The notes below the pieces were generated by a model. That model searched no databases, was not told the origin of the DNA, and saw only the letters and a list, made by a program, of their open reading frames with translations. 64,000 nt of DNA from Obrimoposthia wandeli (Eukaryota): assembly GCA_977020255.1 (NCBI GenBank), contig CDROCS010003230.1, positions 62,001 to 126,000 on the forward strand. Reading direction: 5' to 3'. Position numbers and translations under genes: made by a program. Below are positions 1,251 through 49,104 of the stretch, piece after piece (the stretch's first letter is position 1; each line of letters opens with the position of its first letter).

Positions 1251-1405
1251 ATCACGTGTGTAGCAACTAGGGAATAAAGAGTCTTTATTACGCATTCCTA
1301 GTTTGTAAGTACACACGTGATGTGTGACGTGTACATCTAGGGCAGCAACTACACTGATTGTGAACCATATATAAACAATCAGTGTAGTGTCATTTATCAA
1401 TTTCA
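1251..1405 (+). promoter_or_regulatory. Putative promoter of the pPolB transcription unit: two hairpins, TATA box and Inr-like site
   Basis: Imperfect hairpin 1251-1321 with ATCACGTGTGTA/TACACACGTGAT arms. A 13-bp inverted repeat (1348-1360/1376-1388) encloses TATATAAA at 1368. TCAATT follows with its A at 1399, then a GTAAGT..TTTAG intron (1421-1470) directly before ATG 1471. Confidence 0.55.
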
Positions 1406-6238: not shown

Positions 6239-6487
6239 AAGTATTAACTAATATCCTCTTATTTTTAATGTGATAGTATGTATCTTTTTAATGCAATAGT
6301 ATGTATATATTTTTAATGCTATAGTATGTATATATTTTTATTGATGTTTATTTTTAATACATTGTATGTATCATAACCATGTCTTGACTTCCTACTAGCT
6401 ACTCATTGGATAATTTCATTGGATAATTTTAACAAATTCTCTATAAATATAAACACATTTCAATCAACCAATTTCTCATTATTTCAA

Positions 6488-6727
6488 ATGACTACTTCTA
6501 AAGAAAAATTGCAAGCTCTCTATGATAACCTGAGCCCTACCTTGATGGCCCAGTATACTGAAAAGTACTTTAGCTTATTTGTTGCACCAGAACTTTTTGT
6601 CTCAAGGATTGAAGAACTTTATATGTATCACCTGTTTAATGGAGACTTTAAACCTAAAGTTGCAACAATCATTAAAATAGAAGAAGAAGAAAGCATGGAT
6701 TGTGACAATGAATATAATTATGTATAA
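6488..6727 (+). CDS. Small hypothetical Polinton protein (79 aa, acidic C-terminus)
   Basis: ATG at 6488 is preceded by TATAAACA at 6448, the same spacing seen for element B genes. Confidence 0.45.
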   Translation: MTTSKEKLQALYDNLSPTLMAQYTEKYFSLFVAPELFVSRIEELYMYHLFNGDFKPKVATIIKIEEEESMDCDNEYNYV

Positions 6728-6786
6728 ACATAGACTTTTTTTTACTAAACTCCTACTATAAACAATAACGTTTCTTAAGATAAAAA

Positions 6787-6841
6787 CTGCGATAGCTGTC
6801 CGGTTATGCGGGGCAGTCTAACTCCTGGAATGAGGTCGCAG
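6787..6841 (+). ncRNA. Unidentified 55-nt structured motif, copy 2
   Basis: Direct repeat of 1902-1956. TATAAACAA begins exactly 30 nt upstream (6757) and AATTAAA follows downstream. Confidence 0.4.
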
Positions 6842-6928
6842 TACTAAGTAAATTAAATAGTTGCAAATAAAAATTTGGGACGGTCAATTATGTTTAATTT
6901 CAAAATTAAAATTTTTTAATTTCAAAAT

Positions 6929-7195: not shown

Positions 7196-7369
7196 GTAAA
7201 GTGTCGGTTCTAAAACAATAGCACACAAAGCCCCCCCCCCCCGAACAAGGCACAAGGAACAAAGCACATCTGTATGACTAATCAAATTTCAGATGTGCTT
7301 TGTTCCTTGTGCCTTGTTCGGGGGGGGGGGGGGGCTTTGTGTGCTATTGTTTTAGAACCGACACTTTAC
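7196..7369. repeat. Near-perfect palindrome (~77-bp arms, 17-nt loop) with poly-C/poly-G tracts; probably the subterminal hairpin of element A
   Basis: GTAAAGTGTCGG...GCACATCTG pairs with CAGATGTGC...CCGACACTTTAC; C12 versus G15 run. Confidence 0.9.
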
Positions 7370-15200: not shown

Positions 15201-15369
15201 AGTAGGTGGATGTGTCCGGTCTACTCCACACCCCCCTCCCCCCTTGTCCTTTAAAACCGTGCATGTGTGTGGAGTGAAATTTCGTGTAGGTGTGTGGATT
15301 GAAATTTCGTGTAGGTGTGTGGAGTGAAATTTCAATCCACACACATGCACGGTTTTAAAGGACAAGGGG
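15201..15369 (+). repeat. Left TIR of element B, with an internal 34-bp-arm hairpin and two 25-bp tandem units
   Basis: Reverse complement of 26761-26904 plus one extra CGTGTAGGTGTGTGGA(T/G)TGAAATTT unit (169 versus 144 bp). Confidence 0.95.
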
Positions 15370-15508
15370 GGGCGGGATCCCCCTCCCTATAAATTTTTCG
15401 GGCGGGCTTCATTCTTGATCTACAGGCACGAAAAAACATCGGTCAGATCTATATAATTTAGAGGAGCAAAAACAAAATATGAGACAAAATTATTTTTCAA
15501 AATATTTA

Positions 15509-15913
15509 TTAAACATAAAACAACATATTGGCTTCACTCAAAGTCCAAAGAGGCTGCATTTTCCCGTCATCACCAAAATATCCATTGAGACGTATTGAGA
15601 TATTCCATAGTTCTTCATCTAGAATTGGAGCAATCAAATATCCTAGATCATCTTTAAAATCCAGACTGGGATCAGTTTCAAGCTCGAAACAATTTCCTTC
15701 ATATACATAATCAGGAATGTAAAATCCCAAAATATTTTTCAATTGATCAAAATCAGATGTTGTTAAAATTTCGATGAGATATTTTTTCTCCACTTTTGAT
15801 ATTTTCACAGGATTCATAACTCGTATAATTTGATGCCTCTTTAATATATTACATAGTTTTCCTTTTGAAATTCTTTCTGGATAATAAAAATTTGCTACAC
15901 ATCTCTTATCCAT
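15509..15913 (-). CDS. Hypothetical protein, paralog 1; possible T7 gp2.5-like OB-fold ssDNA-binding protein
   Basis: 134-aa ORF conserved in copy B2. Shares NPV.I, DF..LK, F.DD.G, W...IRL.GY and P.W with its neighbour. TATAAACA lies 37 nt upstream. The SSB call is inference from the pattern. Confidence 0.75.
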   Translation of the reverse strand: MDKRCVANFYYPERISKGKLCNILKRHQIIRVMNPVKISKVEKKYLIEILTTSDFDQLKNILGFYIPDYVYEGNCFELETDPSLDFKDDLGYLIAPILDEELWNISIRLNGYFGDDGKMQPLWTLSEANMLFYV

Positions 15914-16046
15914 TCTAAAATAAGAAAACTGATTAAAAACAATGTTTATAAAAAATACATATAAGATTCATATAAGATACAAATAAAACTGATTATTAAA
16001 TGAAAGAAACACAGTAAAACCGATTACAATTTATTACACGCAAAAG

Positions 16047-16493
16047 TTAAAACATAGAAATATGAGCACGTTCAATTTTCCACATAGGCAACTTTGTTCC
16101 CATTTCATCTTTCTTGTAACCATAAAGTCGAATTGTTAGAGTCCATTGCTTCTTTTTCGGAAACGCATCAATATCAACATATCTTCCATAGTCATCTAGA
16201 AATGCTTCATCGGGTCCTCGGATATAAAATTCGTTCTTATTGAAAGTAAAATTCGGAACTGCCTTTTCTAATTTCTGTTTAAGATATTGAAAATCTGGTT
16301 TTTGAATATTTGATAGATAGTAGCTGAACTTTCTTCTTTCAATTGTCACAGGATTTACTAAAGCAATCAGTTGAGCCTTCTTCAAGAATCTGACTTTGTA
16401 TTTGAAATATTGTTTCACTTCTTCATACATATCCTTATCCGATTCTTCAAACATTTTTTTATCATCGCTTAATACCCGTTGGCTATCGTCCAT
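16047..16493 (-). CDS. Hypothetical protein, paralog 2; possible gp2.5-like SSB (start uncertain)
   Basis: Open frame to 16523 with the first ATG at 16493. Conserved in B2 (50980-51420) and clearly paralogous to 15509-15913. Confidence 0.75.
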   Translation of the reverse strand: MDDSQRVLSDDKKMFEESDKDMYEEVKQYFKYKVRFLKKAQLIALVNPVTIERRKFSYYLSNIQKPDFQYLKQKLEKAVPNFTFNKNEFYIRGPDEAFLDDYGRYVDIDAFPKKKQWTLTIRLYGYKKDEMGTKLPMWKIERAHISMF

Positions 16494-16701
16494 CGTTGAT
16501 AATTGTATTTTATATGAATGCATTTACTGTGATTTGTCCTCCAATGGCGCATTCTTTTAAACTAATTTCTAACAAAAACATGAATCTCATTGGTTACTTT
16601 AACAAAAGCATTGAATTTGATTGGACAAATTATATCATTCAATTATAATAGGTTTGCAAGATAATTACAAGAAACGTGCAATAAAAAAGCAGGTTCAGAC
16701 A

Positions 16702-16737
16702 TATATAAAGAAGATTTTATAGAATACAATTTCAGTC
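16702..16737 (+). promoter_or_regulatory. Canonical TATA plus Inr core promoter of the TBP-like gene
   Basis: TATATAAAG at 16702 and TCAGTC with its A at 16734 (32-nt spacing); ATG at 16740. Confidence 0.65.
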
Positions 16738-16739
16738 TA

Positions 16740-17216
16740 ATGAAACTCGTAAATATAAATTATAAAGGTAGAACAGAAGATGATGTTTCGTACTTACCAT
16801 TCAATGAATGGAAGCCGAGACAATATGTGGAAAGGTTTGACAATTTCACAGTTGTTATTTTTCCTACAGGTTAGTTTTTTATTTTATTTTCATATTGAAT
16901 TCTTTTAGGAAATTGTCGTGTTATGGGATGCAAAATACCAATGCTTGGGTTCAATTTACCATTTGGAATTCAAATCACTGCAATACAATCAATCACGATT
17001 TCGGCTAATCTCGGGAAACAGATAAATCTTTTTAAAACTGCAGAGAAAATGAAAGAAGAATGCATGTTTGAACCAGAAATTTTTCCTGCTCTCAGTTATT
17101 TGAAGTTTAAACCGCTATGTGTAAATATATTTTCCAGTGGTAAAGTTATGATATTGGGATTGAAAAATTTTGATTATCCAAACATTGTTGATTTGATTTT
17201 AGAAAATATATCTTAA
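16740..17216 (+). CDS. TATA-binding-protein-like protein, 145 aa, join(16740..16869,16909..17216)
   Basis: Two TBP-type repeats: KLVNI...TVVIFPTGNCRVMGCK and IQSITISANLGKQINL...FEPEIFPALSYLKFKPLCVNIFSSGKVMILGLK (compare TBP YEPELFPGLIYRM..P.IVLLIFVSGKVVLTGAK). A 39-nt GTTAGT..TTTTAG phase-1 intron joins the exons in frame. Confidence 0.85.
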
Positions 17217-17268
17217 TACATCTTGTTATCTTTTCTATAAACAAACCCGTTTAAACTTATTGTTTTGA

Positions 17269-17541
17269 ATGAATAATACTATAAATAGAGACAATGAAGT
17301 GGATCGGCTTGCCGAAGAAATATTTTCTGGAAAAATTAGGGGTAAAGAAATTTTATCAGAATTAAAAAATAATGATATAACAAGAGATAACATTGAAATA
17401 TTGGTTAGATCACACGTTATTCGAGAATTTAGAAATCGTACACAAATAAATAAAATTATAGCCAAATATTCATTAATTAATTTTTGTATTTCATCTACAA
17501 TAGCTCTAACATTGTACATTTCAATAAGGAAACTTCTATGA
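17269..17541 (+). CDS. 90-aa hypothetical protein with a hydrophobic C-terminal segment
   Basis: ATG is preceded by TATAAACAA at 17236. C-terminus SLINFCISSTIALTLYISIRKLL. Confidence 0.55.
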   Translation: MNNTINRDNEVDRLAEEIFSGKIRGKEILSELKNNDITRDNIEILVRSHVIREFRNRTQINKIIAKYSLINFCISSTIALTLYISIRKLL

Positions 17542-17578
17542 TAATATAAACAATATTAAAAATGAAAGAGTATATGCA

Positions 17579-18226
17579 ATGGAGCTAAATAATAATGCTG
17601 TATTTCAAATAGTTGGCCCTAGTGGAAGTGGAAAGACACATTTCGTCTGTAAATTGTTGCAAAATGAATCTCTTTTCAACTCGAGTTTCAAAAATATTTA
17701 TTGGCATCATGGTGGAGGAGGGGAAAGCGGGTTAACCAAAACAGAAGTTTGCAAGTTGAAGGGTATAAAATTTATTGAAGGATTTGATGCAAATTGGTGT
17801 GAAAGATTGAAAAAAGAAGATGTAATAATAATTGATGATTTGTATGAGGAGGCTAACAAGGAATCGGACTTTAATAATTTATTTACAAAGATTGCAAGAC
17901 ATCGTGAAGTAACAGTTATATTTATCACTCAAAATCTGTTTCACCAAGGAGGTCACCATAGAACAAGAAATCTTAATGTACATTACTTAGTTTTATTTAA
18001 AAATCCTAGAGATCAAACAGTTGTTGATTTTGTGGCCAGACAGGCATTTCCTCGAAATAAGCACTTTCTAGTTGATTCATTCCACGATGCTGCTAAACAA
18101 GCACATGGGTATATATTTATTGACTTTACACAAGCTTTCCCAGATGATTTACGTGTTTTAACAGACATATTTAATTCTAAGGGAGTAAATGTTTATAAAC
18201 AAATCGAGAACAATTATAAAAAATAA
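17579..18226 (+). CDS. A32/FtsK-like genome packaging ATPase
   Basis: Walker A GPSGSGKT, Walker B IIIDDL, then ARH and ITQN motifs. Intact 215 aa. Confidence 0.93.
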   Translation: MELNNNAVFQIVGPSGSGKTHFVCKLLQNESLFNSSFKNIYWHHGGGGESGLTKTEVCKLKGIKFIEGFDANWCERLKKEDVIIIDDLYEEANKESDFNNLFTKIARHREVTVIFITQNLFHQGGHHRTRNLNVHYLVLFKNPRDQTVVDFVARQAFPRNKHFLVDSFHDAAKQAHGYIFIDFTQAFPDDLRVLTDIFNSKGVNVYKQIENNYKK

Positions 18227-18233
18227 ATTCGCA

Positions 18234-18385
18234 ATGCCTTTTACAAAGTTGATAGTAAAACGTAAAGTAAAATCTAAGAAATAAAAAAAAAGAATCATTA
18301 AGAAAAAAGAAGTGAAAAAGAAGTGAAAAAATTAATCATATCTGTAGTTAAAAATAAAAAAAAACTTAATTGGCTTCGAATATAA
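18234..18385 (+). pseudogene. Small Lys-rich protein (intact 48-aa version at 51724-51870)
   Basis: MPFTKLIVKRKVKSKK* here, versus MAFKELIVKRKRKAKPKKSEKRIIEKKEVNKLIKSVVRNKRKLKWLQI in B2. Confidence 0.55.
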
Positions 18386-18416
18386 ACAATATTTAAATTG
18401 AACCTTTTTTATTAAA

Positions 18417-18529
18417 ATGAAGAAAATACAAAGAAGCATACCCTATTTTAATGCTTTGGTCAAAGCCTCTTCTAATAAGAGAATGATTATTCTTAAAGCA
18501 TTTCCATCCTTTGTTGTAGATGATTTATT
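18417..18529 (+). pseudogene. N-terminus of a conserved small basic Polinton protein, fused to the integrase by a deletion
   Basis: B2 (51897-52225) keeps the missing part, which ends LKQNGGFIGAIFPVVASIISRIIAATRK. Confidence 0.7.
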
Positions 18530-19513
18530 TCAAGTTTCAAAATTAGCAAAAAGAACAAAACAAAATTACAAGAAAACGCAGAAATGGCTGAGCGACCAGT
18601 TAGCCTACAGTCTGAACAAGCCGATGAGAAGAAGGTTTCCAACTAGAGCTTACAAAACCAGCGGTCCTAATAATTTATGGCAAATGGATTTGATGGAGAT
18701 GATCCCATATTCTTCCATTAATAAGGGATATCGATATATTTTAACATGTATTGATGTATTTAGCAGGTTTGGTCGTGCAATTCCAGTTAAAGCAAAGTCT
18801 TCAATAGCTATGCTTGAAGCCATTAAAGAAATATTAAAAGAGGACATTCCACACAATTGCAAACTGATTTAGGAAAAGAATTTTATAATAAGCAAGTTCA
18901 ATCATTATTTAAACAAAATAATATAAATCATTACTCTGTGTTTTCACAATACAAAGCAGCAGTAGTAGAAAGATTTAATCGTACTCTAAGAAATCGAATA
19001 AAAAAGTATTTCACAAAAGAAGGAAATAAAAAATTGATCCAAGTTTTACCTAAAATAATACATGCATATAATCACTCTGAACATAGAGGTCTCAAGGGAA
19101 TGAGACCTGTTGATGTTACTAATAAAATCTCTATGGACATTTGGATGAACAGGAATAAAAAAGAAAAAATTAAAAAAGCTAAATATAAGAAAAACGAATA
19201 TGTTCGAATTTCGAAAATTAGCTCTACTCCATTTATTAAAAACTTTGATCAGAATTGGAGCGATGAAATATTTTGTATAAGTAAAATTGATCAAAAGAGT
19301 AATCCAATAATGTATACTATTAAAGATGCTGACAATAATATCGTTCACGGTAAATTTTACGAGCAAGAACTACAAGTAATATCAAATAAACCTAGCGTTT
19401 TCCGTATTCAAAAAATATTAAAATCTAAGGGTACAGGTAAACATAAACAATACTTTGTTAAATGGCATGGTTATTCAGACCCAACTTGGATATCAGCATC
19501 TAATATAATATGA
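18530..19513 (+). pseudogene. int: Retroviral-like (RVE) integrase with C-terminal chromodomain; N-terminus deleted, frameshift near 18858
   Basis: WQMDL (D), QTDLGKEF (D), AVVERFNRTL (E); YFVKWHGYSDPTWI chromodomain. Confidence 0.93.
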
Positions 19514-20575
19514 AATCTATGTATATGGTTTTACCTAGTAACGGATGTCCGAAGACTCAACCAGATAATTACGCTAGTAGCTTTATTATCGATTGGGAAA
19601 ATCCTATAAATCTCCAAGGAGAATGGGAAGCGGCTTTAACAGAATTTTCATTTTATTATTCACCAATTACTATCAGAAAAAACTCACATATTTCGTTTAC
19701 AAAAGAAGTTGATCATGAAAAATCAATTGAAGTTGTGATTGGGTTTGATAGTAAAGGAAAATTCTATTACAATTGTAAAGATAAAGAATTGAAAGTAATA
19801 TATGAAAAAAAACAAAGTCATATTTAAAAATAGACTAAAACTTTTTTTAAAACCTATTCAAATTATATTTGGATCTGATAGAGAAGCTCTTCAATTTGGG
19901 TTTGACAGTGGACATGTAGTAGGTATGAAGATATCTGATATAGCCTCATCTAAAATGTTTTAAAATGTTCCTGATAGAGTAACAAAAGTGTTTTTAGTTG
20001 AAACGAGACCAAAGTATGTAGTGGAACTGAAAATGTTTTCAAAAGATTATAAATTAGATAGTGAAGTGAATTTCTGTAAATTAATACAGAAGGAATGTAG
20101 TGAATATTTTGATAAATGTGTAACATTAAAAAATGGTAAAATAACGTTTACAGTAAAGAGCAATATAATACGAGTTTTATTTGATGATAAACTTGCTAAA
20201 AACCTTGGTTTAAACAGTAATACCTTTGAAACCGATACAATAAAAACCATAAAAGCTAAAAATAAGGCAAAACTTTTAAATGCTGTTAAGCATTTATATA
20301 TGTATACTAATTTAATAGAATCAACGCTTGTAGGAGGACAGCGAGTTCCACTTTTGAGAACAATATGGATATCTAAAAATGAAACTAGAGATGGAGATAC
20401 TGTCGGTATGTGTATAGATCAACCAATGTATCTTCCAGTTTCTCTCTTTTCTATAAACAATATTGAAGTAAATATTAGAGATGATTCTGGACAACTAATA
20501 GATTTCACGTACGGGGCCAAGACAAGTTTAACAATACATTTAAGAAAACAAAATGGCGAATCCAGCAATAATTGA
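19510..20575 (+). pseudogene. Minor capsid protein (penton/PX-like), disrupted at about 19820-19990
   Basis: YMVLPSN...F...NPINLQGEWEAALTEF N-terminus and LYMYTNLIE..LVGG..VPLLR...NNIEVNIRDDSG C-terminus. Confidence 0.85.
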
Positions 20576-20929
20576 AGCTTATAGTCAAAGCCAACAAGGT
20601 GGAGAATTACCATATATTGTTGGTAAACAATACGGATCTGGCTGGCTTAGAACATTAGGTAGATTTGCCTTTCCTCTTTTAATAGACTCAGGCGATTTAT
20701 ATCAAAATTAGGAAAGGATTACCTTTCATCTAAGGACAATAAACTAATACCAACTTTTAAGAAGCATGCGCTTGATGAACTTGATAATGTTTTACATGAA
20801 GTTGCTAATTTGATTAGAAAACGTAAATCAAATAAAAGCCAAGGAGGTAGTGGATTTAAAAGTAAAAAGAAGCAAAAAATCAATATAAACAAACGTAAGA
20901 ATGTTGAAGGAACAATATTTGCAAAATGA
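20553..20929 (+). pseudogene. Basic core-like protein with QxGG/QxGxG motifs; one frameshift near 20680
   Basis: MANPAIIEAYSQSQQGGELPYIVGKQYGSGWLRTLGRFAFP...SQGGSGFKSKKKQK. The stop overlaps the MCP ATG. Confidence 0.7.
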
Positions 20930-22155
20930 GTTGCGCCAAAACTGAATTGTGTATTTTTGATAAACCACTTCCACAAGTAGTTGTAGATAATGCTTCCTTT
21001 GAAGAAATATTTCTAGTTAACTCAGTTTCAGGAACCACTTTAACCGATTTAGAATTTAATATTAATGGTTCCAATAGCGAGTATTTAGATTTGAATGATA
21101 CTTTGCTTTATGTTCAAATAAAAGTATTAAATCGGGATGGTACTAATTTAGATGAAAATGCCGATGTAACACCTGTAAATTATCTCTTTAATTCTTTATT
21201 TAATGATGCCATTGTTACTCTTAATAATGTCAAAATTGAAGGTGGAAATTCTTCCTATGCTCATAAAGCTTTGATTGAAAGTCTTTTGAATTATAGTACT
21301 GATACTCAAAATACTAATTTGACAACCATTGGTTATGATAAAACGGTCGCAACTCACAAAGAATGGATTGCAGGTTCTAAAGCTTACGAAATGTGTGGGT
21401 CTTTGAGATTGAATTTCTTTGAACAACCGAAATATTTAATTCCCGGTGTTAATGTACATCTTCGTTTGAAACGTAATAAATGGAATTTTTCTTTGATAAG
21501 CACGGACGTTCTAAAACCTAGACTTGATATTTTGGATGCAAAATTGTATGTCCGAAGAGTTAAAACCGAGCAGTCAGTTTTAATGGCACATAATATAGGA
21601 ATGGAAAAAAACAATGCTTGTTATCCTATAATAGAAACTAAACTTATATCCTATTCTTTAGGTACGGGTACACAAGCTTTTAATAAGGATCAAATTTTTA
21701 TTGATGTAAGATTACCGAAATTCATTTTAATTTCTTTTCAAAAAACTGCAAAGTTTCTAGGAAATTATACGACAGATGCAACTCAATTTGACAATCTTAA
21801 TGTAGGTTCAGTGACACTTTCAAGAAATACTGATTATCGCGAAACATATAAAACAGATTTCGAAGGTGACGCTTATGCTTTGGCTTATACGCAATCTATT
21901 ATTCGGAATTTGGGTCAACTATATAAAAATATAAACAATGGTATTTATTTCACTGACTTTAAAAGCAACTGCCCGTTCTTCACATTTGTTTTGGCACCAG
22001 ACTTTGATATAAACCAATGTCAACTACCAAAGGATGAAAATTTACGACTAGAAATTAAGTTCAATGCAGCTTTAACACATCCTACTACGGTGCTTATTTA
22101 CGGAGTATTTGATTCGGAAATACAAATCAATAAAAACAGAACTGTCATATTATAG
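20926..22155 (+). CDS. Double-jelly-roll major capsid protein (PY), intact 409 aa
   Basis: MSCAKTELCIFD N-terminus, YLDLNDTLLYV, FEQPKYLIPGV.V.L.L.RN. Lies between the core protein and the protease. Confidence 0.92.
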   Translation: MSCAKTELCIFDKPLPQVVVDNASFEEIFLVNSVSGTTLTDLEFNINGSNSEYLDLNDTLLYVQIKVLNRDGTNLDENADVTPVNYLFNSLFNDAIVTLNNVKIEGGNSSYAHKALIESLLNYSTDTQNTNLTTIGYDKTVATHKEWIAGSKAYEMCGSLRLNFFEQPKYLIPGVNVHLRLKRNKWNFSLISTDVLKPRLDILDAKLYVRRVKTEQSVLMAHNIGMEKNNACYPIIETKLISYSLGTGTQAFNKDQIFIDVRLPKFILISFQKTAKFLGNYTTDATQFDNLNVGSVTLSRNTDYRETYKTDFEGDAYALAYTQSIIRNLGQLYKNINNGIYFTDFKSNCPFFTFVLAPDFDINQCQLPKDENLRLEIKFNAALTHPTTVLIYGVFDSEIQINKNRTVIL

Positions 22156-22156
22156 A

Positions 22157-22537
22157 ATGGAGTAAGACATATTTTAAATTTATATTTATTAATTTTTATT
22201 TAGTTCAAAACAAGTAAAAGAATCAGCAGAGAAGGTCCTGGGTGATAAATTCAATGGAGTTTATCCTATTGATATGATTCCATTTTTTCAATCTGGAGGA
22301 TACATTATCAATACTCATACTTCGAATTTACCAGGAGAACATTGGATAGCTATTTATGTTAGAGAGTGGACAATACATGTATTTGATCCACTTGCAATGT
22401 ATTATCCACACAAACTTGTTTCGACTATTCACAAAGGACGAAGAAGAGTATTTTACAACAAGATGCAATATCAGGATCCTGCGACGAGAAACTGTGGACA
22501 TTTATGTATTTTATGGTTATCGTTGCAAAACGATTAG
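22157..22537 (+). CDS. Adenain-like protease, join(22157..22161,22204..22537)
   Basis: A 42-nt GTAAGA..TTTAG intron gives MDSKQVKESAEKVLGDKFNGVYP...NTH.SNLPGEHW...FDPL...QDPATRNCGHLC. Confidence 0.9.
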
Positions 22538-22799
22538 TGTGTTATAAAAATAAATATTTTTAATGTTTTATTTTGAATAATTTTTTAAATCTCTAAAAAT
22601 ATAAGGGTAAAATAATAAAAGACATAAGACAAATTTTTTTAATACATTTATTAATCACAACATCACAATGAGATATGTCAGCAAAGATAAGGTCCAACCT
22701 AAAAAAGTATTGAAATAACAAAATGTTAGAGTCAAGGTGCCATAGGGATCTAAAATTTTAAAAAACTAAACTAAAAAAATCAAATAAAATGAAAATCGT

Positions 22800-25700
22800 T
22801 TAAATTCTGAAGTGTCCATAAGCCAGGCTAGCGTTCTTTTCTACCCAAAAGCGCTTGTCGTCATTACTACTCAAAGCGATTTTGGTTGATTTATGGGAAT
22901 ACAGTTGATGGGCTCTTGAAATAAATCTAGTTTGCTCAACGCTTTCAATACACCAAGTATCATAAACTTTCCGGTAGGTCTCATGTGTAAGATTGTTTCT
23001 TCCCACACCCTTTGCTCTCATTGAACATGTATTATTAGATGTATGTAAACTGTAGCATTTAGGGCGTAGGAAAATACAATCATCATGCGAAACCTGTCCC
23101 TCGCTTTCATCCTTAAATTTCCCGATAATGTCATTTAAACTCATAGAGTGTAGAGGATTGTTAGCGGGATATTTATGGGTATCTAGTAAGTTGTCGCTGG
23201 TAATAATTGATTATTTAAACTAACATTCCTACATTCTAAAAAAAAAGAGTCAGTGTCCCCTGCCGCGATTTTGATCTCACAATTAAATTCTTGTCGGTAT
23301 TTCTCCAATTCTATGTATTGAAGCTCATACATTCTGAGTTTAGAAATGTCTAAAACCGTTTGACCTATATAACTCGGTTGATCGAGACAAATACTCTGTT
23401 TTCCTAATAACACTGCTACCAAGTCATCTGCAATTGTAAAACTACGCTTGAAGTTGTACTTGCTAGTATATGTTATTAGTTTACGCTCATCATTGCAAAA
23501 CCGTAGACAAATACGTTTCCGCAAGTCCTCTACAGTTTTTCCAAAGAGACTATTACTTTTTAACTTGTAAAAATCTCGATCGAATTTGCAAGTGGCCAAA
23601 TTACGTTTTCTTGAATTCTTCTCAATATAGTCTTTAAACACAAAGTTTTGACTGAAGCTTATAGCACGATGAATTCGAGTAACTTTCGCTCCCAACTTTA
23701 AGTAGAATTGAAGAAGCCACCAATGCACAACATAATTCAACTTGTCTTCATGGGTTAACAATAATTTCTTAACCTTTGAATTAGGTGGGCATTGATGAAC
23801 AGGCGCTACTGGAAGATCATCTAATTTATCATGCACATTGGGAGGGATTTTTATGTCCACCTCAACCAAATAGCCGAAGTCAGATGAAACTGTATCAACT
23901 GTAGCCAAATCTGTCATCAACTTATTCAACTGATCCACATCATAAACCCACTTAAAGTTGACATGAGGTAGAGGTTGAGTAAGCGCCCACCCATACAAAT
24001 TATTAATATCGATGTACAGAATCTCCGTGGATTGATTTTTGACAACATGATGTTTGTTGACAAAAGTCATTCCACCGCGTATACCATAATCATACATTTG
24101 ATACATCGCGGGATCTTGCAGTAACTCGATATTAATTTTAAGAGTTTTTATTGCTGTTGTCTATGAAAGACCAGGTAAACTAAAGAAATACATGGGATCT
24201 AGCCCATCTTCTGCTAAAGATTTTACACGAAAGAATTCAAAAACATCAGCTAAAAGATAAATGTCTAACTTCATATAATAAAGCATATATTCTAAAAGAT
24301 TTCGACAATTATTCGCCCAAAATGTACGGGCCTCATTATAGTCTTGAAGACTTACACTTTCAAATTCAGTTATGGGTGGGATTTCAGTTGTATTTTCTAA
24401 ATCTGCAAAGGTTTTCGCAAATTTATACGGAAAAATCCCCTTATCGTTAACCGAAGCTGGGAACACTGACTGTGTAATTGGCCATGCATTTAAAGATGCC
24501 GTTAAATTTTTTAAAGAACCACTCAAAAACTGCAGAGAATCTATGAATCTTAAACTGCAGAATTCAGTATATGCAGTTAAAGATAAATATATCTCTGAAG
24601 TTTGAGGTATACATGAAATCTCCCAAGAGCTTAATGTACCCAACGCGTATTTAAGTATATGATGCAAATAATATCCTTTGAGGTTATGAAACACGATGGG
24701 AATGCGTGGTTTTTTAGGGAGACGACGGCCAAAGTTACAAAGGTTGCACGCCGCTCCCAAGTATCGCCCCATAACATGATCGTGATCTCTGATTAACTTA
24801 GACTGGGTTCCACAGAAATAACATAATCTACAAGAATTAAAATTAACCCAGTCTATGCCTGTCATGATCATTGCTTGATGAGCATTGAGATCATACCACG
24901 GTTTGACAATTGTTGTTCCTAATTCCTCTAATTTTAACATAAAATCTAAAATACAATTTGGACCGGAAAATTTATGATACTGGGTAATATTGGGGCCTAA
25001 GAATAGTAGTCCTGCCGAAGCCGGTAGGTGAATACTCTCATACTGGTCGTGCAATGCTAAAATTGACTCAAAATCTGAATACACCCTAAATTCCATGGGT
25101 ATGCATTTTGCCCAATCCCTGAATTTTTAATCCTTAGGCATGCTATATAGCGTATTGTCATCAGGATTCAGTGAACATAATGTCAGATGTTTGCTGTAAG
25201 AGAGCTCGGATCGGAACCCATGCAAACATCTATGCCACCACTTATATCTTATACTAACCGGTAAGGCTCCATTATCTAAATTTAGAAGACGATCTAAATT
25301 GGGAATTGCAGCATAATGGAATTTTTTATTATGTTCGAGCAAAATTAAGTTGACCTGAGTCCCCTCATTTTTGCTCCTATAAATTACATCTACAAAAGGA
25401 TTTTTAAAATTTTCTTCATCTGTTACTTTAACTGGGATATCAGTATTATATTTGAATACATTAATACTCAAGTTATTAAGATGTTCAAATCTTGATATCG
25501 CAGTTAATTTAACAGGAAAATATATTCCATGATACTGCAATTCATTTAAAAAAGGGGTATATTTACTGACATGCTCTCTATGCTCAGTAATTACATCCCT
25601 TTTGAGGATAGCCAACACGCTATACAGAAAGCAAAGGTTATCACTGTTTTGTACGTTAACAATGGAACGTGAAAGTTGAAGAGATCTAGGTGAAGGAATG

Positions 25701-26040
25701 TATGAACTCCCCGAAAGATATATCATGTCAGTGAACTTTGTTAGAACAAAGCTAACATCGTGAATTCTAACTAGAGTCCATCCACTACTTAACTCGCTAT
25801 AATTAGCAATTTTTTCATCCAGGTTTCTTCCAATTTCAGTTACAAAATTATCATAAAAAACAGTTGCTTTATGTGAAATTACCCAAGTTTTAGTTTCCTC
25901 ATTGACATTTTTAAACTGCACTGTTGCGCAAAATTGAACCTTAGCCTGTCCTAATTTAGTCACTTCTGATTTTAAAAGATTTTCAATATTTGAATCTACA
26001 CCTACGTTTAATAAAATTTCATTTCCTAATGGCACCTTAA
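22800..26040 (-). pseudogene. polB: Protein-primed PolB of element B (several stops and frameshifts)
   Basis: VYSDFES, DHDHVMGRYLGAACNLC, FHNLKGY, YMKLDI, YIDINNLYGWA, KLKSNSLFGK, GDTDS, RPKCY, DDKR, AYGH. Confidence 0.95.
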
Positions 26041-26086
26041 CTATAACACATTTATTATTTAGGTGATACTCTATAGTAGTACCGTT

Positions 26087-26724
26087 TTATCTACGTTTTT
26101 TGGGTGGGACCTTATTAAGAAATCGGCCTCGCCTCTTTCTTCCGTTTGTCGCTGACAAACCTCCCCCTAATTGAACGGGAAGACAACTATTTATATTAAT
26201 AGTTGAGACAATTGCAGCTGATGTTGAAGGTGCTGCTATTGGTGATGCTGCCGATGTTGAGGCAATTGCAGCTGATGTGGAAGGTGCTGCCGATGTTGAG
26301 GCAATCGTAGCTGATGTTGAAGGGGCTACTGTAGCAGGTGCTGCCGATGTTGATGAGACAGTGGCAGTTGTAGAGGCTGCATTTGAAGCTGACCTTGCCG
26401 ATGAAGAAGCGGCTGTTGTAGAGGCTGCATTTGAAGCTGATCTTGCCGATGAAGAAGCGGCTGTTGTAGAGGTTAGTGCTGCTGAAATAAATATATTAAA
26501 AAATAAATATATTTTTTTAAATTACCTCTAAGGCGTGCTAACATCGATGTAGGCACTCGCGATGGTGGAGGCATATCTGTTGTAGCAGATGACGATTGTA
26601 TAACGGTATTTCCTGAATAAAAAATAAAAATAAAATATATAATTTAAAAATAATAATAAAAAATACCTAATGAAGGAAATCCAAGTTGAGCTGGAATGAA
26701 GTCCTCTTCATTGATGGAATCCAT
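26087..26724 (-). CDS. Spliced Ala/Ser/Thr-rich leader of pPolB: exons 26724-26667, 26612-26526 and 26481-26087 (179 aa, ending in an NLS-like PPKKRR)
   Basis: Two phase-1 GT..CAG introns (54 and 44 nt) keep an open frame. Contains tandem STTAASSSARSASNAA repeats and QLGGG. A possible third intron (26094-26041) joins it in frame to polB. Confidence 0.7.
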
Positions 26725-26760
26725 CCAGCTGACGTCCGGTCTAATCCACACACCCCTCCA

Positions 26761-26904
26761 CCCCTTGTCCTTTAAAACCGTGCATGTGTGTGGAGTGAAA
26801 TTTCACTCCACACACCTACACGAAATTTCACTCCACACACATGCACGGTTTTAAAGGACAAGGGGGGAGGGGGGTGTGGATTAGACTGGACACATCCACC
26901 TACT
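26761..26904 (-). repeat. Right TIR of element B
   Basis: Ends ...CACATCCACCTACT; folds into a hairpin spanning 26734-26891. Confidence 0.95.
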
Positions 26905-47500: not shown

Positions 47501-48534
47501 TGCTAGTGAATGTGAAACTCCATTCTAAGCCTAATTTTGATGGATGTAAATTTCGGATGAAAAATACCAACAGTTGCTAATGAAATGAATAGGTTGAGTA
47601 CTAAAATCAATAAAAAGAAATATCAAAATGTTTCATACTTTACACCAAAAAAAGCATAACATAAAATATAATTGTTAGACATAAAAGTGAATATACGTTT
47701 TGAAATCTTGTACACAAATTAAAATCAACGTCCTATTGGTATATCGAACTGAACTTCAATTTCTTTTGCATTTGAAATATAAAGCAAATCGGTATCTGCT
47801 TCAAGAAAGCTTCCGAATTCTTGTTCTGAAGACGTCCTAAGGTATACAATAGAAAGGGAAAGAATGAGCAATTTAATTTTAATATAGTGTAAAAAAGCAA
47901 ATGACAACATCAAAAAATCCTCTGACAAATTTAAAAATTGTATTACTAGTGGTAACAGTTTTCTTTAAAGAACATTTTTACATGTATTAATAAAAATTCT
48001 TATTTAAAGTTCTTGTTTTTATTAAGACCCTTCAATTAAAAATTTGGATATATTTTAACTTGGTGATTAACTAAATTACTATTGCAAAAATAATCATTTC
48101 CATGTAACTTTGGATATTTTCCAGTAAAGCAGTGTATAACGAATATTATAGGAACTTATTCTTTATCAGAAAAACATGATGAATGAGAAACCAAGTTAAT
48201 TGAAAGATTTATTAATATTTTCGAAAACTTCAAATAACATTACTTTAAAAATGAAAACTAACAACAGATAATGTTTTGATTGAGACAAAAAGGTCAGACA
48301 GTGCAGTGAAACGTTCACCTTTGTGCATAACAATCCGTAAGATTAAAAATACTTCTAAAAGAACGTTTAACATTTTCTTATCTATGAAGCAATATGAAGA
48401 GTTACTGAGACATCTAATAGAAGTACCACAAGTTTCAGTTATAGAGTTCATGTAAATTAATGTTTGAATGCGCTTTTAAGTAATGTGACTATTAAATTCC
48501 GGTAATCTTTAAATACTTATTGTCATTGTCCCAC

Positions 48535-49104
48535 CTTGAACTCAGTCAGTGCGGTCGATGTCTCAAGATCCCAGTGAATGCAGTTCTTGTCGCCAGAGCC
48601 GCTGATCAACTTGTCATTTGACTGGTACTGCAGGTACGATATGTAGCCGGTGTGACCACGCAGCTGGGCACAGGACTGCTCGTCATTGGTCGCCTCGATC
48701 CCGTACACGCTGACCTCGTTGTCTAGTCCGCCGCTGCACACGAACCGGTTGTCAGGACAATAGGCACAGTTCATGACCCAGTTGTTGTTGAGCTTCTTCA
48801 TATGCAGCTTGTTCCCCGAGTGAGCGTCCCACACGATCATCTTGCCGTCCTGAGAAGCGGTAACCAAATGCTGACCATCAACAGCCCAATCTAGACCATT
48901 GATTTTCGACAGATGCGACCGTAGCTGCTTTGAGATACGCATCTTCACACAGCCGAACCCCACAACCTCGATGGTGGCATCATAGAAAGTTGTATCCTGA
49001 ACTTCAAATCGAGCAGTGTCCAGCTTGTCCTTCACGTCCTCGATTTCCTCGATTAGCTGCTTCTCTTCCGGTGAAAGCTCATCTTCGTCTGTCACCGACT
49101 CCAT
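48535..49104 (-). CDS. GNB1: G-protein beta subunit, exon 1 (361 aa in total over three exons)
   Basis: N-terminal coiled coil, HLSKI..LDW, ASQDGK.IVWD, WVMNCAY, SGGLDN, GHTGYIS, SGSGD. AAG/GTGGGA donor. Confidence 0.93.

Follow-up and report, generated by a model that had tools for sequence, protein, structure and literature searches.

A variant TATA box at constant distance ahead of packaging and capsid genes in Polinton elements of Obrimoposthia wandeli, and an element-encoded mini-TBP as its candidate reader

The window analysed here is a 64,000-nucleotide (nt) stretch of the Obrimoposthia wandeli genome (NCBI GenBank assembly GCA_977020255.1, contig CDROCS010003230.1, positions 62,001 to 126,000 of the forward strand). 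Its central feature is element B, a Polinton/adintovirus element which carries a gene for a protein resembling the TATA-binding protein (TBP) and, ahead of many of its genes, the variant TATA box TATAAACA. The element was delimited by its 108-nt inverted ends, Pfam matches, capsid fold and sister copies. Pfam recognised pPolB, an rve integrase with chromodomain, a packaging ATPase and the TBP-like protein. The product of a gene of 409 amino acids resembles double-jelly-roll capsids; its structural model is of low confidence (pLDDT 46), the matches listed for it were all such capsids, and the capsid profile found no sequence match in the PDB. The protease was recognised as adenain-type through PF00770 on the orthologue in a related element, L209, of another sample. 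With pPolB, integrase, packaging ATPase, inverted ends, double-jelly-roll capsid and adenain protease, element B has the features by which Polintons and adintoviruses are recognised. The names penton, core and SSB used below were given from gene position and have no library match; SSB was taken over from the first-pass annotation and has no match in Pfam.

Copies of element B are very numerous in this 1.35-Gb AT-rich animal genome, and all 150 scored matches are at least 99% identical at TBP exon 2. Compared with sister copies, the copy in the window has an internal deletion near 18533 and a shortened right end, which replaces at least ~1.5 kb kept by the sisters (another gene and a spliced polymerase leader). 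Three further TBP-encoding families of the same genome are used for comparison. The remainder of element A, its TBP gene included, lies directly upstream of the window, and A has 8 box sites in 10 kb, all on a single strand. Families D and E were found by a TBP family search. The features of element B are as follows.

15201..26904, strand not assigned: Polinton/adintovirus element B.
15943..15950, minus strand: TATAAACA box of SSB-like gene 1 (ATG 15913), 37 nt upstream.
16702..16709, plus strand: canonical TATAWAWR box of the TBP gene, TATATAAA, 38 nt before ATG 16740.
16740..17216, plus strand: gene of the element mini-TBP; a 39-nt GT-AG intron is predicted at 16870-16908.
17236..17243, plus strand: box of open reading frame (ORF) 17269 (90 amino acids), 33 nt upstream; A and E have the matching site at 31 and 32 nt.
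17545..17552, plus strand: box of the packaging ATPase gene (17579), 34 nt upstream; spacing in A and E 35 nt, while D has a variant first base.
18194..18201, plus strand: box of the Lys-rich ORF (18234), 40 nt upstream; within the ATPase 3' end, on Tyr-Lys-Gln codons.
18381..18388, plus strand: box of ORF 18417 (protein X-like core gene), 36 nt upstream; overlaps the preceding stop codon.
20452..20459, plus strand: box in the penton-like gene; the core-protein ATG (20553) lies 101 nt downstream.
20884..20891, plus strand: box of the major capsid gene (20926), 42 nt upstream; lies in the 3' end of the core gene; in A and E likewise 42 nt, in D 39 nt.
21930..21937, plus strand: capsid-internal match; box spelling only in A and B, absent in D, E and a fifth family.

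In the window, TATAAACA occurs at 23 sites, compared with a mean of 10.9 in shuffled sequence (largest 18; none of 100 shuffles reached 23). Six box-to-ATG distances that the first-pass annotation had given for element B (37, 33, 34, 40, 36 and 42 nt) proved exact. The box stands at 6 of the 11 annotated starts of the element, while 20,000 shuffles of the same 11 upstream 60-mers gave 3 at most. The orthologue of ORF 18417 in element A has a weak PF05829 match below the cut-off (E 3e-4), and a box site of A at 6723 includes the preceding stop codon, as the one at 18381 does. Outside element B the following sites are found.

1368..1377, plus strand: element A dual site, canonical box and TATAAACA, ahead of a spliced polymerase leader region (splicing predicted).
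6442..6455, plus strand: element A dual site, TATAAACA 40 nt before ATG 6488.
6757..6856, plus strand: element A box, then a structured element without ATG.
50840..51873, strand not assigned: degraded copy B2, with boxes at 50847 (minus strand), 51684 and 51866.
62111..62153, minus strand: family C tandem boxes ahead of the polymerase first exon, the nearer box 39 nt away in sister copies.

The retention of the box in B2, claimed earlier, is borne out at these three positions. The hits reported for element A at 1370, 6448 and 6757 are likewise present; the first two overlap canonical TATAWAWR boxes (1368 and 6442) and are therefore dual sites, and no ATG follows the third. The structured element found there occurs twice in family A (6786-6856 and 1901-1971), the copies being 85% alike, with a closing stem and fold z of −2.5 and −2.2. 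The copy at 6786 begins 28-29 nt after TATAAACA in 8 of 8 listed matches. An Rfam search with the structured element gave no match; it may be a non-coding RNA or ribozyme, and its position gives only a hint of a transcription start near +29.

Across families the consensus is TATAAACAAW, as the base after TATAAACA is A in 25 of the 29 distinct positioned sites and the one following it A or T in 28; a first-base variant is found at three starts. The box lies 28-46 nt ahead of genes in all four TBP-encoding families of this genome (A, B, D and E), and the spacing is similar between orthologues, not only for the ATPase and capsid genes listed above but also for the Lys-rich or protein X-like genes (29-40 nt), the 90-amino-acid ORF (31-33 nt) and IAP (46 nt). 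Starts for the statistical comparison were called automatically and retained if common to copies. The clusters retained were 12 of 43 for A, 20 of 77 for B, 13 of 61 for D, 20 of 20 for E, 2 of 16 for C and 22 of 56 for the distant family F; some false and internal starts are among them. At the 65 starts called in A, B, D and E, ATAAACAA (20) and TATAAACA (18) were the commonest 8-mers 25-50 nt upstream, and the motif count at 55-80 nt was 0; the lack of positional enrichment that was named beforehand as fatal to the idea was not found. Counted from the boxes, an ORF start lies 28-47 nt downstream of 7 of 13 sites in A, 6 of 9 in B, 3 of 11 in D, 3 of 10 in E and 1 of 6 in C, over a background of 2-5% (P 9e-7 to 2e-3 in A, B, D and E).

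The families share 58-60% of amino acids with B, identity at four-fold silent sites is 0.34-0.35, and the flanks of the boxes agree at only 5-14 of 30 bases. This means that the spacers are randomised between families while the box persists. Within family B, 19 young copies gave 0.978 for the box and 0.955 for the flanks, and one site fell below its flanks; as evidence of conservation this is weak.

Two sites inside coding sequence deserve separate discussion. The site inside the penton gene (20452 in B) keeps the box spelling in B, D, E, the fifth family and L209, at 96-101 nt before the core gene. Element A is without this site and has one 41 nt ahead of the core ATG instead, in 6 of 6 copies. 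It was cautioned earlier that the hits at 402 (whose actual start is 400), 20452 and 21930 are just Ile-Asn-Asn codons. From the conservation pattern this is likely for 400 and 21930, the capsid-internal match being kept in only two of five families, whereas 20452 is likely a real promoter with a longer leader. The companion statement that penton, core and protease genes lack the motif at the usual spacing holds for the protease of B, and the core gene has its likely site at 101 nt. At the other coding site, the end of the ATPase gene (18194 in B), the box is also present in A, D, E, L209 and L089, where it lies 39 nt before the next gene (L089 is classed neither as TBP-positive nor as TBP-negative). 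Of 117 related ATPases, 110 have Tyr-Lys-Gln at this column. The residue after it is free, and its codon begins with A or T in 73 cases and with C or G in 7 (29 ambiguous). This skew fits a constraint on the DNA; nevertheless, three others of 29 variable columns are equally skewed and the counts fall to 13, 4 and 2 after collapse at 70% identity, so a protein constraint is possible as well. Taken together, the positions and their conservation give good support to the box as a real, selected promoter-like element.

The controls came from a Polinton family for which no TBP was found and from host genes. Family F is a distant, AT-richer family of the same genome, found by a capsid family search; one copy is flanked by 365-nt inverted ends. 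No TBP was found in the 15 kb of this bounded copy nor in the F-like parts of nine others, except for a weak match at F1559 (E 0.048); the TBP matches at F2862, F1890 and F2441 fall outside F-like DNA. The family (loci L113-L138 and L213-L224) is older and of lower copy number, and A/T-run leaders precede its ATGs. The box was present before none of 22 starts of F (Fisher P 0.005; 8 sites in 88.9 kb) and before none of 24 host starts (Fisher P 0.002), both P values making the case look stronger than it is because the tests treat homologous genes of related families as independent. Its being common at host or TBP-less starts, the other outcome named beforehand as a refutation, is thus not observed. 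The host set consists of H3, actin and TBP-family genes, as the starts of tubulin (30 loci) were not recovered by the pattern used. Box density per kb is 0.77-1.17 in the TBP families, 0.09 in F and 0.19 in host loci. Of the host actins, 9 of 12 have canonical boxes 43-84 nt upstream. The host H3 genes (L149-L156) mostly have no canonical TATA; in 7 of 8 the reverse word TGTTTA lies 35-67 nt upstream of the ATG, which is possibly a host core-promoter element.

Related elements were sought in other samples. L209 is a 12.4-kb TBP-positive element on contig JANOGQ010000345.1. It has 7 box sites on a single strand in the ATPase-to-capsid (virion) block, compared with a shuffle mean of 1.9 (reached in 1 of 200 shuffles). 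The spacing is 37-46 nt for three genes, measured to the ATGs that match homologues (earlier in-frame ATGs give 17 and 28 nt in two), and 77-98 nt for three others. In L210, which encodes a near-canonical two-repeat TBP 42% identical to host TBP, TATAAAAG stands 35 and 43 nt before the ATPase and the next gene, that is, the same layout with a canonical box. The TBP of L210 belongs to a different, near-canonical lineage. Both are Polinton-like elements with TBP genes filed in bacterial metagenome-assembled genomes, and are probably mis-binned eukaryotic DNA. The metagenome scan gave four loci, one of them useful (a 1.4-kb contig), and the genome scan four, of which two were useful. IMG/VR scans with ATPase, capsid and TBP queries found no relative of this clade, and a PF04665 search of the animal's own genome at E 1e-8 gave no match.

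The candidate reader is the mini-TBP itself. Exon 2 matches PF00352 (E 3.5e-12), only repeat 2 being above the Pfam cut-off. For the predicted intron, intronless homologues read through the junction; contigs from four runs of one sample cover the element evenly with no joint there, and are uninformative on expression. The family is broad, with 49 clusters at 50% identity and E up to 1e-30; the protein has 140-155 amino acids and consists of the TBP fold throughout. The model for the family D protein (pLDDT 96.8) shows the TBP sheet with only two helices, both of repeat 2, the helices of repeat 1 being missing; its best matches are TBPs, with the saddle fold (Foldseek E 6e-9, TM 0.73).

Residues were compared across 42 homologues with the yeast contact list in Table 1 of PMC12529657, with the register of the first strand and of F99 set by eye. 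N69 (41 of 42), F116, F190, P191 and F207 are kept, and so are the two stirrup Glu (41 each). Six contacts have changed: V71 is N in 42, V122 is R in 41, T124 is M in 42, N159 is S in 42, V161 is T in 35 and L205 is N in 42. Three of the four wedge Phe are retained, whereas 38 of the 42 have Q or M in place of F99. By modelled structure and alignment, the mini-TBP is a reduced saddle whose DNA face carries near-invariant replacements.

In TBP, repeat 1 reads the 3' half of the TATA box. An altered repeat 1 had been put forward as an explanation for the changed 3' half-site; it is indeed the more rebuilt half, but the description was incomplete, as the DNA face of repeat 2 has invariant changes too.

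Element TBP genes lack the variant box: it is found at none of five (B, A, D, E and L209). The canonical box reported before for the TBP gene of B is present, and 4 of 5 such genes have one, at 38 nt before the ATG in B and 35 nt in A, D and E; that of L209 is near-canonical. SSB-like genes have canonical boxes at 41-42 nt in A, D and L209, and the second paralogue of B in 6 of 7 copies. Because these canonical spacings equal those of the variant box, the two boxes appear to occupy one slot. The variant tier comprises mainly packaging and virion genes, and also IAP, one SSB-like gene and the polymerase of family C. The two tiers of the programme suggested earlier are therefore visible in the sequence, but on its gene content the second is not strictly late.

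Family C, with a polymerase and an SSB-like gene, is a case of its own, as no TBP or capsid gene was found in it. In the window it occupies 58880-62200 (loci L051-L066); head-to-head inverted pairs 8-11 kb apart are common, and its end sequence is common with family B.

TATAAACA(A)(A/T) is a conserved box in the TATA position of most packaging and capsid genes, and we consider it likely that the element's mini-TBP reads it and so switches on this second tier of genes with host RNA polymerase II. The box, its spacing, orientation, conservation and distribution and the altered TBP fold are observations; that the mini-TBP is the reader we infer from them. Host TBP would first transcribe the element TBP and SSB-like genes from their canonical boxes 35-42 nt before the ATGs. 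The mini-TBP would then bind the C-containing box, which ordinary TBP may use poorly, and recruit host TFIIB through its retained acidic stirrup. With transcription beginning ~30 nt past the first T, leaders would measure 0-15 nt, or ~70 nt in the case of the core gene, and the TBP-less family C would borrow the mini-TBP in trans. In yeast, the available text of PMC3514670 describes TATAAAcA as a change used to eliminate a TATA box, with lowered expression, and for this reason the box is likely poor for ordinary TBP.

Several points weigh against this assignment. By its title, PDB 1QN3 is a crystal structure of wild-type TBP with a C(-25) box, and PMC8643651, in its available part, describes a Hoogsteen pair; host TBP can therefore bind a C-containing box, C(-25) being interpreted here as TATAAAC. 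Repeat 2 of the mini-TBP is altered although the 5' half of the box is unchanged. Family C carries the box without a TBP, and 4 of the 29 positioned sites overlap a canonical box (the other 25 have none). The reverse word at 7 of 8 H3 genes means that the host may have a factor reading the core of the box. The protease gene lacks the box in A, B, D and L209 and has it in E. The spacing in L209 is 96 nt for the ATPase and 77 nt for the penton, and the TBP of this element differs at several conserved residues; L210 is one 3.4-kb contig and its own TBP gene shows no box. Finally, apart from the non-independent genes in the Fisher tests, F is a distant lineage, so that the contrast between TBP-plus and TBP-minus is a single phylogenetic one.

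Some of these points would be accommodated if the box were a real core promoter read by host TBP or a paralogue, perhaps with a cell-type factor, the element TBP serving otherwise, for example as a decoy or repressor. The host has the genes for it, namely two canonical TBP genes in head-to-head arrangement and two divergent TBP-like genes without introns (L069, L072 and L073), and the binding of TBP to C(-25), the use of the box by family C and the dual sites agree with it. Host starts, however, lack the box altogether whereas most actins have canonical ones, and a host reader leaves unexplained why element TBP genes avoid the box, why F is without it and why the near-normal TBP of L210 goes with TATAAAAG. 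We therefore regard a host reader as unlikely, although it fares best among the alternatives.

A host activator site of forkhead type (RYAAAYA) or similar near the transcription start, rather than a TATA substitute, is quite improbable. ATAAACA fits the forkhead core, the H3 genes carry the reverse word, and GATAAACAA words recur upstream of the polymerase leader of family B. GTAAACA and GTAAATA are usually the stronger forkhead words, and they stand before none of the 65 starts in the same upstream interval; reverse-orientation sites precede only two, both being one palindromic site, and 25 of 29 sites have no canonical box beside them.

Very improbable is a 3'-end signal, a TATAAA poly(A) variant belonging to the preceding gene in tight arrays. 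The sites at 18381, 17545, 17236 and 6723 overlap or follow the preceding stop codon, and the TBP gene and ORF 17269 lack AATAAA within 60 nt of their stops; a dual promoter and 3'-end role is possible at some sites. As a general account it meets the difficulty that array-final genes mostly end in AATAAA without the box (SSB1 of B and the proteases of B and A), that SSB2 and the ATPase possess their own AATAAA, that the box also occurs where no upstream gene is seen on the strand (site 1082 of E and the C polymerase), and that its spacing is fixed to the following start and not to the preceding stop. Chance in AT-rich DNA combined with preferred codons at conserved residues is hardly credible: the Tyr-Lys-Gln codons are the preferred ones (0.74, 0.72 and 0.78) and the capsid-internal match is poorly retained, but non-coding sites persist between saturated families, the AT-richer F has almost no boxes, and AAC, a rare Asn codon (0.23; kept at 12 of 24 conserved Asn overall, box sites included), is used at the core and penton sites. 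For the whole set of sites chance was rejected on positional enrichment and conservation; it stands for the single sites 400 and 21930.

Of the surroundings, we note here that the element ends (15201-15376, 26734-26904 and 7196-7369) contain internal hairpins, and that a host G-protein beta-like exon and remnants of Gypsy-type retrotransposons lie between the Polinton copies (48523-49104 and 54700-57800).

Reading of the box by the mini-TBP would have its closest parallel in the late promoters of herpesviruses, where the TBP mimics BcRF1 of Epstein-Barr virus (EBV), ORF24 of KSHV (Kaposi's sarcoma-associated herpesvirus) and UL87 of human cytomegalovirus (HCMV) pair with a TATT late box, as stated in the available parts of PMC4893493 and PMC12529657. 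Common to the beta/gamma-herpesvirus pre-initiation complex (vPIC) and the Polinton pair is a TBP-fold protein with a more polar DNA face. The one-base TATA variant at fixed spacing ahead of structural genes, here TATAAACA and not TATT, may be the counterpart of the late box, host polymerase II use being assumed for Polintons. The differences are in size and detail. The Polinton protein is a stand-alone one of 140-155 amino acids whereas the herpesvirus mimic is large and works in a six-member complex, no partners of which were found by Pfam among 23 ORFs of the window; the change is at box position 7 (C) and not at 4 (T); and acidic TFIIB-contact residues appear kept in the mini-TBP, which ORF24 lacks as far as the accessible text goes. 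By analogy, the pair would work like a herpesvirus TBP mimic without being a member of that system.

With cellular TBP (PF00352; PDB 1YTB and 1QN3) the mini-TBP shares the saddle and three of four wedge Phe, and the variant box stands at the same ATG distance as the elements' canonical TATAWAWR boxes. It differs in that two of the four helices, those of repeat 1, are gone, six DNA-facing positions are near-invariantly replaced, and neither four wedge Phe nor two complete repeats are present. Virophages and Polinton-like viruses (mavirus, Sputnik and PgVV-14T; 10.1101/2022.07.28.501842) belong to the same broad group of small integrating double-stranded DNA elements and likewise repeat a single short motif ahead of many genes; in the accessible portion of that preprint those motifs copy promoters of the helper giant virus, whereas in the Polintons the element itself encodes the candidate reader, and the predicted GT-AG introns suggest transcription in the nucleus. 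In gene content the closest likeness is to adintoviruses or Mavericks as described in the available text of Starrett et al. 2021 (PMC8502044), with pPolB, rve integrase with chromodomain, ATPase, capsid and protease, and IAP in some families. In that text TBP figures only as an abbreviation in a figure legend, for elements from non-animal datasets, and the word promoter occurs 0 times in the main text. In the published literature that was found (subscription papers and supplements lie outside the search), no Polinton TBP with a matching box is described, nor is there an account of how integrated Polintons turn on their particle genes.

On balance we lean, if only slightly, towards a fuller picture in which a private TATA box has co-evolved with the DNA face of a 140-amino-acid TBP, lies in the coding sequence of more than 100 related ATPase genes, and is borrowed by a capsid-less satellite, making this the smallest known viral transcription switch. 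If true, the polymerase of the satellite would be on only when a helper makes mini-TBP. The late-promoter strategy of herpesviruses would then have arisen independently here, with one protein instead of six, and the mini-TBP would be a natural altered-specificity TBP that shows a way of rebuilding the saddle so that it reads a G:C pair. With a defined box and a single candidate reader, the question is open to gel shift and reporter assays. In copy-rich genomes the box serves as a marker for gene starts and for telling helper from satellite elements.

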